Position numbers and translations under genes: made by a program. Shown piece after piece: positions 18-1,981 of a stretch of DNA of 2,126 nucleotides; position 1 is the first letter of the stretch; each line of letters opens with the position of its first letter. The stretch comes from Naegleria gruberi (lineage: Eukaryota). The notes beneath the pieces are model-generated. The model saw only the letters and a list, made by a program, of their open reading frames with translations. It searched no databases and was not told the origin of the DNA. The stretch lies in assembly GCA_000004985.1 (NCBI GenBank), contig GG739288.1; one strand, given 5' to 3'.

Positions 18-938
18 TCAGTCAACTGGGTAAAACATCATTAAAGTCATGCTATCTGTAATTTCACAACTTTTAACAATCATCTGTTCCATTTTTTTCG
101 ATTTCAGCAGTTTTGAATCTTTAAACATGACACCTTCATCAACCACTAAAAAGTGTGATGCATCTTCCTCGTGTTTACATTCTTTAAAATTGCAAGTACC
201 CAATCCAAATTCTTCATCAAAGTAATGTGTAACAATCTTCTCAATTATCATTGGTGGAACACATTGACCCTCTTCTTCATCCAATGATTGTAAAATTGGG
301 TCATTTCTCTTGTATCTTCCCAGGGAATCATCTGGAGGCATTCTAAGCAAAGACTGTGAAATGTCTAAACAGTTATTAGGGTATATTACCCAAGTTACAT
401 CACTATCGTATTCAACTTCTTCCCAATCACTGTTTTTCCAGTATCTAATGTCATCTCTTTTACGAATTGAAGTTTTCAACCAAATCAAATCACTTTCTCC
501 AATAAAATGCTCACGATTTGTCAAGTTGAGCAGTTGAGTGTGACCTCTGTTGTTCATCACCAAGTATTGGGGTGTGAAATTTTGTGGAATTGGTTCTCTC
601 ATGTCAGCGTGAAATTCAAAGTGTGGACCAAGTGGCTTGCTACTCATTTGTTCTGAATCATTTTCTAGCAAAATCAAGGAAAATGGTTCGAAACTAATTG
701 GGCATGATAGGGTGTCACTCATACAATCCTCACAACAGTATGTGCTTGGGTCTAGTTCAGGAAACAATTCACAATAACAATGAATGCAAAAATATCTGTC
801 AACATGTTGATTTGATTGGATAAAGTAAACTTGTTCAAAGTGTGAGTTTTCTTTCAAGTTTCTTGTCGAGTTGTGTTTTGGCATTTTTTTTTCTTGTTGT
901 TTATTCGAATTGTTTAGTTGGCACTCGAATTTATTCAT
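18..938 (-). CDS. Hypothetical Cys-rich protein of 306 aa, family not recognised; stop TGA at 18-20
   Basis: This is an uninterrupted 930-nt ORF in AT-rich DNA, where stops are otherwise frequent. The ORF track's start at 945-947 is a TTG. The first ATG is at 936-938, in an A-rich context (ggaaaaaATGa, A at -3). The protein begins MNKFECQLNN... It contains the Cys cluster FCIHCYCELFPELDPSTYCCEDC and the motifs HVD and PHFEFHAD. No canonical splice donor interrupts the frame. Confidence 0.6.
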   Translation of the reverse strand: MNKFECQLNNSNKQQEKKMPKHNSTRNLKENSHFEQVYFIQSNQHVDRYFCIHCYCELFPELDPSTYCCEDCMSDTLSCPISFEPFSLILLENDSEQMSSKPLGPHFEFHADMREPIPQNFTPQYLVMNNRGHTQLLNLTNREHFIGESDLIWLKTSIRKRDDIRYWKNSDWEEVEYDSDVTWVIYPNNCLDISQSLLRMPPDDSLGRYKRNDPILQSLDEEEGQCVPPMIIEKIVTHYFDEEFGLGTCNFKECKHEEDASHFLVVDEGVMFKDSKLLKSKKMEQMIVKSCEITDSMTLMMFYPVD

Positions 939-1088
939 TTTTTCCAATAGATAAAAATAGTTTTTGGGATGAAAAACAAACTTTCATGTTTTAGAGCCAT
1001 CAATGATCCAATTTTGGATAATATCAAATCCAATATTTACATTTTCAATTCTTAATTAACCAAAAAAAACAACTTTTAGTAAAATTAC

Positions 1089-1096: not shown

Positions 1097-1495
1097 TTAA
1101 CAAATGATACATTTCTTCTCATTACCTTCCTTCTTTGCCTTCTTATCTGACAATTTTGTTGTGCTTGTTACTGTTGCTGCTTTAGGTTTATTATCCAAAT
1201 TCTTCTTAATTTCCAAAACCATTCTTATGAAAGCTTCCTCAACATTGGCCGAAGATTTTGCACTCGTCTCAATGAATGGCATATCATACCGGTTTGCTAA
1301 TTGTTCACCCTCTGAACGTTCAATTACTCTCTCAGCGGTTAGATCTGATTTACAACCAACCAAAAATTTTGTAATATCTACAGGAGCTGCCTTGTCAACT
1401 TCATTAATCCATTGACTGACATTATCGAAGGAGGATTGGTCAGTGATTGAGTAGGCGATAAATACACCGTGTGCATCTTTGAAATAACCTGGATG
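1097..1495 (-). CDS. Rab-like gene last exon (HPGYFKDAHGVFIAYSITDQSSF...LVGCKSDL...FIETSAKSSANVEEAF...KKCIIC), stop TAA 1097-1099 followed in frame by TGA
   Basis: Continuous frame covering Rab beta4-alpha5. The G5 motif ETSAK is conserved. The ORF track starts at an internal TTG (1361-1363), but the frame is open back to the acceptor at 1495. Confidence 0.85.
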   Translation of the reverse strand, partial: HPGYFKDAHGVFIAYSITDQSSFDNVSQWINEVDKAAPVDITKFLVGCKSDLTAERVIERSEGEQLANRYDMPFIETSAKSSANVEEAFIRMVLEIKKNLDNKPKAATVTSTTKLSDKKAKKEGNEKKCIIC

Positions 1496-1526
1496 CTGTT
1501 CGATAATTAGGTAAATAAACTTATAA

Positions 1527-1542
1527 GGTGGTTGGTTGGTTG
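1527..1542. repeat. Tetranucleotide repeat GGTG(GTTG)3; on the minus strand (CAAC)3CACC within intron 5
   Basis: Direct reading. Confidence 0.85.
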
Positions 1543-1549
1543 ACTTACA

Positions 1550-1577
1550 CTATTTCACAATTGTGAGCTATTTCACA
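1550..1577. repeat. Tandem ~18-bp duplication: CTATTTCACA at 1550-1559 and again at 1568-1577, enclosing the 10-bp perfect palindrome CACAATTGTG (1556-1565)
   Basis: Direct reading. It lies inside putative intron 5 of the minus-strand gene. Confidence 0.8.
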
Positions 1578-1599
1578 CCAAGAGTTGTAAAACACTTAC

Positions 1600-1609
1600 A
1601 TTTTCAATG
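1600..1609 (-). CDS. Possible 10-nt micro-exon CATTGAAAAT (A|IEN); the only frame-consistent canonical model
   Basis: Exon 4 leaves phase 2. Every candidate exon 6 acceptor (TAAG|TTT, ACAG|CAT, CCAG|GT) needs phase 0 or phase 1. The only GT donor in between is AAAAT|GTAAGT at 1599/1600. Only the 10-nt exon starting after tcAAG satisfies the frame. The 21-nt alternative (1600..1620, NAPSQALK, which aligns with Rab DTAGQERF) is off by one nucleotide. Confidence 0.2.
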
Positions 1610-1665
1610 CTTGACTAGGACTAATATCAAATATTAAGTAAATCATATGATAATGTCTTACTTAC
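1610..1665 (-). other. Intron 4 (45 nt if the acceptor is GATATTAG at 1621, 56 nt if the acceptor is TCAAG at 1610)
   Basis: The donor GTAAGTAAGAC is unambiguous. The acceptor choice is uncertain; see findings. Confidence 0.5.
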
Positions 1666-1769
1666 GCATTCCATATTTGTAATTTCAATGTTTTTCCATC
1701 CATTTCAATGGTACGAATTTTAAAGTCAACTCCGAGAGCGGAGTAATAAGTATCTGAGAAGGTATTGTC
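1666..1769 (-). CDS. Rab-like gene exon 4, switch I / beta2-beta3 ([34 protein letters not shown] + GC, phase 2 out)
   Basis: Strong match to Rab [24 protein letters not shown]. The exon ends at the perfect donor GC|GTAAGTAAG. Reading on in frame gives GCG TAA, a stop. Confidence 0.85.
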
Positions 1770-1812
1770 CTGAGAAAGGGGTAAGTTTGTGTGAAATATG
1801 TGGTTTACATAC
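1770..1812 (-). other. Intron 3 (43 nt), GTATGTAAACC...CTTTCTCAG
   Basis: GTATGT donor, pyrimidine tract, CAG acceptor. The ORF track reads through this intron. Confidence 0.8.
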
Positions 1813-1856
1813 AGAATAACGAAGGAGAAGTGATTTTGTTCCAACTTTACGATCAC
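1813..1856 (-). CDS. Rab-like gene exon 3, P-loop region ([15 protein letters not shown])
   Basis: GT GAT CGT AAA GTT GGA ACA AAA TCA CTT CTC CTT CGT TAT TCT. It aligns residue for residue with Rab GDSGVGKSCLLLRF. The ORF-track 'M' at 1854-1856 is a GTG. Confidence 0.8.
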
Positions 1857-1895
1857 CTAATATCATGTTTAGTTTAGTTTAGTTTCCCTACTTAC
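1857..1895 (-). other. Intron 2 (39 nt), GTAAGTAGGG...GATATTAG; contains (TAAAC)n
   Basis: Canonical GTAAGT donor and TAG acceptor. The intron interior is a pentanucleotide microsatellite. Confidence 0.7.
1867..1886. repeat. Pentanucleotide microsatellite (GTTTA)3GTTTC; on the minus strand (TAAAC)n inside intron 2
   Basis: Direct reading of plus 1867-1886. Confidence 0.9.
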
Positions 1896-1924
1896 CAAGG
1901 AAGAGTATTTTTACAAAATAATCA
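1896..1924 (-). CDS. Rab-like gene exon 2 (phase 2 in, phase 1 out)
   Basis: T GAT TAT TTT GTA AAA ATA CTC TTC CTT G encodes (Y)DYFVKILFL(G). This matches the Rab N-terminal beta-strand YDYLFKLLLIG. Confidence 0.7.
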
Positions 1925-1967
1925 CTACAAAGTTCAAATTACTACATGTCTGCAACAAATAACTTAC
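1925..1967 (-). other. Intron 1 (43 nt), GTAAGT...TTGTAG
   Basis: Canonical donor and acceptor. Splicing removes an in-frame TAA and joins MDPSY|DYFVKILFLG. Confidence 0.6.
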
Positions 1968-1981
1968 TATGATGGATCCAT
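1968..1981 (-). CDS. Rab-like gene exon 1 (ATG GAT CCA TCA TA, phase 2 out)
   Basis: ATG at 1979-1981 follows an A8 leader (aaaaaaaaATGG). Upstream, the reading frame of exon 2 hits an in-frame TAA, so an intron is required there. The donor GTAAGT follows immediately, on the minus strand at 1962-1967. TA|T completes Tyr of the conserved YDY. Confidence 0.6.

Follow-up and report, generated by a model that had tools for sequence, protein, structure and literature searches.

The window analysed here is an entire unplaced scaffold of 2126 bp from Naegleria gruberi NEG-M, and on its minus strand lies a gene for a Rab-like small GTPase in which the residues that bind phosphate and Mg have specifically been lost while the Rab scaffold and the open reading frame (ORF) have been kept. 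The gene clearly descends from Rab1. We read it as an N. gruberi-specific, Rab1-derived paralogue that still is, or until very recently was, maintained as a coding gene and whose product would be unable to switch between GTP and GDP, making it a candidate class-i pseudoGTPase; we give this reading a probability of about 0.55. We know of no earlier stand-alone class-i pseudoGTPase in the Rab family. In the scheme of Stiegler & Boggon, as outlined in PMC13393502 and PMC12490416, members of class i have a G-domain fold and neither bind nor hydrolyse nucleotide.

The gene runs from an ATG at 1981-1979 to a TAA stop at 1099-1097, exactly where an earlier, sequence-only reading of the window had placed it, and its model comprises six exons and five introns (Table 1) with a 600-nt coding sequence (CDS) for 199 amino acids. 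The protein reconstructed in that reading matches GenBank EFC35390.1 / XP_002668134.1 (P0121) in full, letter for letter. That entry is labelled "rab family small GTPase", and the gene therefore already carries a pipeline annotation; none of its six accession numbers appears in the searchable papers. All five introns are bounded by GT..AG, with a GTAAGT donor in four of the five and GTATGT in the other, and introns 1-3 measure 39-43 nt.

Searches of the 199-aa model against Ras and Rab families, which had been proposed as a check, returned Rab1 as the best match. The Pfam Ras profile (PF00071) aligns with residues 10-164 over profile positions 1-161 of 162 (E=3.4e-42; 144.2 bits against a cut-off of 21.6), and among solved structures the best matches are Rab1A and Rab1B (human Rab1A, E=7.5e-55), followed by Ypt1, Rab8 and Rab10. 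The top PDB and database matches are all Rab1, then Rab8 and Rab10, which places the product by similarity in the Rab1/Rab8 group rather than with Ras, Rho or Arf. Its alignment to human Rab1A contains a single gap, of six residues, in switch II, so that the claim of a gap-free alignment everywhere else was correct. An AlphaFold2 model (pLDDT 67.7) shows all six strands of the sheet but, of the five helices, lacks alpha2 (alpha1, alpha3, alpha4 and alpha5 are built), and its switch I is disordered (pLDDT below 50); this fold is a prediction made from an alignment composed of canonical Rabs. The top Foldseek matches to the model are Rab1a structures, at TM ~0.67-0.77 and ~46-51% identity. Human RAB1A/B and yeast Ypt1 are thus the best match in both sequence and fold, with the same order of secondary structure, and they have in common with the gene product the interswitch (19 of 21 residues identical to the Rab1 consensus), the N-terminal YDY motif and PFIETSAK (8 of 8 identical).

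The nucleotide pocket was compared column by column with 115 Rab1/8-like homologues, in which 87 columns are at least 95% conserved. The gene product is identical at 52 of the 87. Within G1-G3 it retains 4 of 15 residues, against 43 of 61 at the other invariant columns (Fisher p=0.0028), and five further conserved columns in switch II are deleted, while the base-binding elements xKxD and SAK keep five of their six conserved columns. Mismatches outside the pocket are mostly conservative (L/I/V/F, Y/F, R/K). This distribution points to a loss confined specifically to the phosphate/Mg half of the site, and bears out the proposal that these residues were lost while the Rab fold and the ORF were kept.

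The changes in the pocket are S17R, G18K, K21T, S22K, T40A, D63N, T64A, A65I, G66E, Q67N, E68H and N115C. In the P-loop, GDSGVGKS has become GDRKVGTK(S), with Thr at the Walker-A Lys and Lys at the Mg-binding Ser (columns 98-100% conserved), and the Walker A pattern GxxxxGK[ST] of an active GTPase is absent from G1. Arg and Lys stand where Ras has G12 and G13, and a Lys-Ser pair is still present but shifted downstream by one residue (GTKS vs GKSC). In switch I, STIG reads SALG (T40 is Ala). In G3, WDTAGQE is replaced by WNA and a short segment, with DTAGQE reading NAIENH in the annotated model or NAPSQA in an alternative splice reading described below; neither the switch-I Thr of G2 nor the DxxG(Q) of G3 expected of an active GTPase is present. 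Relative to Rab1, switch II is 2-6 residues shorter and lacks the alpha2 helix. In G4, GNKSD has become GCKSD, with the Asn lost and the Lys and Asp kept, and G5 (ETSAK) is intact. All the substitutions listed by the sequence-only reading in the P-loop, switch I, G3 and G4 are thus present in the alignment to Rab homologues, as is the retained ETSAK. Its statement that every nucleotide-contact motif is substituted went too far, holding for G1-G3 and the G4 Asn but not for G5 or the G4 Lys and Asp. It had also called that Asn the guanine-specificity residue; in NKxD, the main specificity residue is the Asp, which is kept here.

The five RabF motifs attributed to Pereira-Leal & Seabra reportedly read IGVDF (F1), KLQIW (F2), RFrsiT (F3), YYRGA (F4) and LVYDIT (F5). 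In the gene product, F1 is LGVDF (4/5) and F2 is KLQIW (5/5), whereas F3 is deleted, F4 reads YFKDA (2/5) and F5 reads IAYSIT (3/6), so that three of the five depart from the family pattern. Because these three motifs fail together with G1-G3, the gene should not be filed as a working Rab.

The C-terminus differs from that of Rab1 as well. The tail, DKKAKKEGNEKK-CIIC, has seven Lys or Arg in its last 20 residues (homologue median 1), and the double-Cys geranylgeranylation motif of the Rab1 type (CC or CxC), which ends 98 of the 115 homologues, is absent from it. A Cxxx ending occurs in only three of the 115, all of them Rab8-like. The lipidation motif, said earlier to be retained, is therefore not retained in its Rab1 form. 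CaaX boxes are processed by farnesyltransferase or geranylgeranyltransferase I without Rab escort protein (REP), and this route would suit a Rab unable to present a nucleotide-bound switch surface to REP or to GDP dissociation inhibitor (GDI). Rab8, the closest sister group to Rab1, has members with a C-terminal Cxxx box and basic residues, as here, but its G-domain matches the gene product less well than that of Rab1 (E ~1e-44 vs 1e-55) and its G motifs are intact. The most identical canonical Rab1-like protein found (52%; second by E-value, after P0002) comes from a Logan transcript contig of 948 nt (P0003). Its alpha5 and G5 region is notably alike (VPFIETSAKTSSNVEEAFLQMALEIKK), its LLVGTKSDL puts Thr at the position of the NKxD Asn, and the protein may stem from a heterolobosean related to the parent lineage.

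Table 1 Positions of the exons and motifs of the Rab1-derived gene in the window
Feature	Position	Strand	Content
Exon 1	1968..1981	-	MDPSY-; followed by a GTAAGT donor; aligns with the Rab1 N-terminus MNPEYDY
Exon 2	1896..1924	-	29 nt; -DYFVKILFLG, strand beta1; identical in contig L015
Exon 3	1813..1856	-	44 nt; degenerate P-loop GDRKVGTKS; identical in P0001 and L015
Exon 4	1666..1769	-	Switch I Thr->Ala (codon 1739-1737), interswitch, then N-A in place of D-T
Ambiguous switch-II junction	1496..1665	-	Intron 4, 10-nt microexon and intron 5 in the annotated reading
Last exon	1097..1495	-	HPGYFKDAHG...CIIC; helices alpha3 to alpha5; stop 1099-1097
GCKSD	1357-1343	-	In the last exon; Cys codon 1354-1352
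ETSAK	1270-1256	-	In the last exon
C-terminal membrane-anchor candidate	1100..1147	-	DKKAKKEGNEKK-CIIC, polybasic stretch and CaaX-like box

The gene is present in three haplotypes. A second NEG-M copy (P0001; XP_002678222), on a 467,654-bp scaffold, encodes a protein 97% identical to that of the window, with four amino acid differences in 188 residues, and carries identical degenerate motifs, including GCKSD. A 3675-nt metagenome contig from ENA (L015), found via the neighbouring ORF, aligns with window positions 2126-1024 at 97.75% identity; all the degenerate motifs and the whole junction at 1665-1543 are identical in it. Since the window, P0001 and L015 have the same lesions, the sequence or assembly error that the sequence-only reading had allowed for is excluded. 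The model of P0001 starts at an ATG within intron 2 and so is without strand beta1, which means that this main-scaffold annotation is probably truncated at its N-terminus. Intron 2 (1857-1895, minus strand), which holds this in-frame ATG at 1866, also contains a tandem (AAACT)3-like run, GGGAAACTAAACTAAACTAAACATG, with repeated CTAAC-like branch-point motifs.

Comparison of the window with L015 provides modest evidence of constraint, in the direction of purifying selection. Exons 1-4 and the microexon show no differences, and the last exon has five substitutions and no indels. Three of the five are synonymous (GAT>GAC, GGT>GGC, GCA>GCT) and two are non-synonymous (I>T and T>A, both shared with P0001), whereas introns and flanks together have nine substitutions and five indel events. 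The Nei-Gojobori pN/pS is 0.18, and the probability of two or fewer non-synonymous changes among five under neutrality, where synonymous to non-synonymous changes are expected at ~1:3.8, is 0.065. Over the 1103 aligned nucleotides, indels number zero in 600 coding nt against five events in 503 non-coding nt (P ~0.02 by length). An estimate of selection, which had been suggested as a check, thus leans towards constraint, with weak statistics (P ~0.02-0.07) from one DNA comparison.

Stops or frameshifts in the exons supported by homology would be the mark of a pseudogene, and none occurs in the 600-nt CDS of either DNA haplotype. When neutral decay was simulated from the present CDS, 16% of replicates remained free of stops at 10% amino acid divergence and ~1% at 20%; the gene product differs by ~50% from all canonical Rabs found in the databases. 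The earlier expectation that decay would bring stops or frameshifts before a precise loss of the catalytic residues is in keeping with this simulation, which at the observed divergence usually yields them. Taken with the way in which radical changes cluster in the pocket, it suggests that the pocket decayed while the remainder stayed under constraint, a pattern that argues for a pseudoenzyme rather than for uniform decay.

Several observations weigh against this interpretation, and its weak point is the switch-II junction, where the reading frame hangs on a gene-finder microexon inside the degenerate region. Exon 4 stops in phase 2, before a strong GTAAGT donor at 1665. In the annotated junction, intron 4 (1665-1610, GTAAGT..CAAG) precedes a 10-nt microexon at 1609-1600 (CATTGAAAAT, coding for 'IEN') and intron 5 (1599-1496, GTAAGT..CAG), after which the last exon opens in phase 0. 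Exhaustive enumeration between exon 4 and the last exon gave no in-frame GT-AG model with a single intron, and every in-frame model requires internal exons of 1-31 nt. The annotated acceptor of intron 4 is the third and weakest AG (AAG, 1610), lying past TATTAG (1621) and CCTAG (1615), and the first AG (1621) combined with the CAG acceptor at 1496 would give a frameshifted mRNA. Of the sequence-only reading's intact ORF across five introns with canonical splice sites, the GT-AG boundaries stand throughout, and the intactness depends on the 10-nt microexon with its AAG acceptor. Outside the junction, the selection statistics rest on five coding substitutions and five indels, some of which are clustered complex events, and divergence is uneven, with two differences in 1981-1543 against ten in 1542-1097. 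The start of P0001 inside intron 2 marks the gene models as unrefined computational models. Among 5.8 billion proteins (a 90%-clustered collection), no species other than N. gruberi yielded an orthologue with these motifs, and an exhaustive HMMER scan of 1.84 billion representatives returned no other close relative, its top matches being multi-domain or tandem Rab models. The proposed search for orthologues carrying the same substitutions therefore came back empty over these two collections, and long-term conservation of the degenerate state cannot be shown because no orthologue was found in other taxa. A scan of metagenome contigs for orthologues gave only canonical Rabs at ≤50% identity, and a query with the 103-aa ORF antisense to the last exon, aimed at further contigs with that exon, returned only L015. 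Loss of nucleotide binding, finally, is read from sequence alone. The pseudo-GTPase reading is thus favoured by the kept scaffold, the lost pocket and the modest constraint, and disfavoured by the weak statistics, the microexon-dependent frame and the lack of an orthologue outside N. gruberi.

The region 1496-1665 contains three GTAAGT donors (1665, 1599 and 1548), and an alternative in-frame reading combines a 21-nt exon (1620-1600) with a 1-nt exon (1549) to give WNAPSQALKIHPGYF. This reading uses GTAAGT donors only and the first AG each time, with introns of 45, 50 and 53 nt, like introns 1-3, and it is colinear with WDTAGQERF, Gln kept. In the first-AG frame, N-A-P-S-Q-A follows the Trp in place of D-T-A-G-Q-E; a single base separates five of the six codons from one for the canonical residue, and Gln keeps its codon. 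Exons of very small size are usual in this gene, since homology validates the 29-nt exon 2 and the 44-nt exon 3, and the in-frame all-GTAAGT models are kept in both haplotypes. Next to the identical stretch 1665-1543, the differences from L015 in this region fall at 1542-1531 and include a 1-nt deletion at 1542, which confirms that this stretch is intronic. The 59 in-frame models all score 220.9-230 bits against the Rab profile, which therefore cannot choose among them, and DxxG is restored in none of the 59. Peptides spanning the junction would be WNAIENHPGYFK or WNAPSQALK. The string CCTAGTCAAGCA (1619-1608) was considered as a remnant of AGQE codons and rejected: 18 matches occur across the window against 17 expected, which is not significant and leaves the idea a suggestion.

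The most serious competitor to the pseudoGTPase reading is a young unitary or duplicated pseudogene, in which the phase mismatch at switch II would be a real frameshift or deletion masked by the gene finder's microexon and stops would not yet have been acquired. We regard this as a possibility to be taken seriously, though the less probable account. It would explain why an in-frame join of exon 4 with the last exon cannot be made by one intron and why the annotated acceptor is the third AG, and the frame problem does coincide with the missing residues in switch II. Confinement to one species and the four amino acid differences in 188 residues between the two NEG-M copies fit it too, and lesions particular to one haplotype in the neighbouring ORF show that the locus at large is not well conserved. 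A decaying gene would sit less easily with replacements that cluster in the pocket instead of being scattered, with 600 coding nt free of stops and indels beside five indel events in the non-coding DNA of the same alignment, or with three synonymous to two non-synonymous changes where ~1:3.8 is expected. The junction itself loses some of its force through the homology-validated tiny exons (29 and 44 nt, with introns of ~40 nt) and through the in-frame all-GTAAGT models conserved in both haplotypes.

A functional protein with a remodelled pocket that binds nucleotide or another ligand atypically and lacks normal hydrolysis, either a class ii/iii pseudoGTPase or a constitutively loaded one, seems to us improbable. 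K116, D118 and SAK are retained, which leaves the base-binding elements at five of six columns, and the Lys-Ser pair lies one residue downstream of its canonical place. Five phosphate/Mg ligand positions, however, are replaced (the equivalents of Ras K16, S17, T35, D57 and G60), alpha2 is missing, bulky Arg and Lys stand at the equivalents of Ras G12 and G13, and to our knowledge there is no precedent for a functional GxxxxGxK[ST] P-loop, which counts against such a binder. There is a negligible chance that misassembly or sequencing error on a tiny, low-coverage scaffold produced the degenerate motifs. The scaffold is unplaced and only 2126 bp long, and relative to L015 it has a 1-nt deletion near its end, in the neighbouring ORF; against this, the motifs and the 1665-1543 junction are identical in the independent contig L015, and the motifs are identical in the copy on the 467-kb scaffold.

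If the gene is a pseudoGTPase gene, a mechanism can be sketched, with expression, prenylation and partner binding presumed. The Lys and Ser of Walker A, the Thr of switch I, DxxGQ and the greater part of the switch-II helix have been lost. The polybasic CaaX-like tail could anchor the protein in membranes with no need for REP or GDI to recognise a nucleotide-bound Rab. The conserved interswitch surface (F45, W62 and the Y/F of the hydrophobic triad) would then be offered constitutively to one or more Rab1/8-binding partners, and the protein might act as a nucleotide-independent adaptor or decoy. In its complete form, this proposal is tentative and more doubtful than the pseudoGTPase reading itself: a Rab1-derived, nucleotide-free G-domain protein would be maintained, REP-dependent double geranylgeranylation would have been swapped for a polybasic CaaX anchor in the style of K-Ras or Rab8, the product would serve as a constitutive decoy or adaptor for Rab1/8 partners, and its mRNA would need either the 10-nt microexon or the 21+1-nt exon pair.

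Among known pseudoGTPases, the closest in kind is ArlEM of the Eumicrosporea, a putative class-i member of the Arf family called from sequence and AlphaFold models (PMC13393502). Like the Naegleria gene, ArlEM is a small-GTPase paralogue restricted to one lineage, its G motifs mutated and elements of its secondary structure deleted; its conservation in many microsporidian species speaks for a function, whereas the Naegleria gene is known from one species. The pseudoGTPase domains of AAGAB (psGD; PMC12490416) and p190RhoGAP (PMC5593906) have a G-domain fold without nucleotide binding and are protein-interaction modules, and the Naegleria product would work in a like manner. They are experimentally proven and ancient, lie inside larger proteins and have no recognisable Rab identity, in contrast to the Naegleria gene product, a stand-alone, recently derived, lipid-anchorable copy of Rab1 known from its sequence. 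Trypanosome RabX1 and RabX2 (PMC2748683) are also among the closest known systems.

The remaining sequence at the locus holds further ORFs. An intron-less ORF at window 18-947 on the minus strand (L015 1162-2208) encodes a 'predicted protein' of 288 aa (P0270) that has no Pfam match and is Cys-rich in its N-terminal part (CIHCYCELF...CCEDC); a search of the 5.8 billion proteins gave no relatives besides itself and its copy in L015. In L015, this ORF extends for ~170 more codons. A 1-nt (T) deletion in the window at ~20-21, opposite L015 1666-1667 (gttgac-tgaaat vs gttgacttgaaat), creates a TGA stop at 18-20 that ends the ORF 17 nt before the scaffold end, and is either a real frameshift allele or a sequencing error at the end of the scaffold. 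Window positions 528-1023 (496 nt) are absent from L015 (junction 1158/1159), so that the contig lacks the intergenic region and ~140 codons from the start of the neighbouring ORF, and this difference is either structural variation or mis-assembly of the metagenome. Downstream of the locus and outside the window, L015 carries at 2443-3630 on its minus strand a 395-aa ORF with no Pfam match and an Asn/Gln-rich acidic tail. The antisense ORF, which lies at window 1104-1415 on the plus strand opposite the last Rab exon, has an ATG start and was called as a 'gene' on the ENA contig by a prokaryote-style caller (P0272, 98% identical); almost certainly it is artefactual and reflects the codon structure of the coding strand.

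Under either outcome, the gene concerns one species and brings no new principle. Were it a pseudogene, it would serve as a useful caution that a microexon can be a eukaryotic gene finder's way of rescuing a frame, and that some protist genes labelled 'rab family small GTPase' do not encode GTPases. If it is functional, it would represent a recent and cleanly traceable passage from a Rab GTPase to a nucleotide-independent scaffold, in which the parent Rab1 is obvious, the fold is intact, the pocket has been specifically erased and the anchor rewired. It would then be a natural experiment showing which surfaces of a Rab still work once the switch is gone, and this in an organism that serves studies of the cytoskeleton and trafficking.

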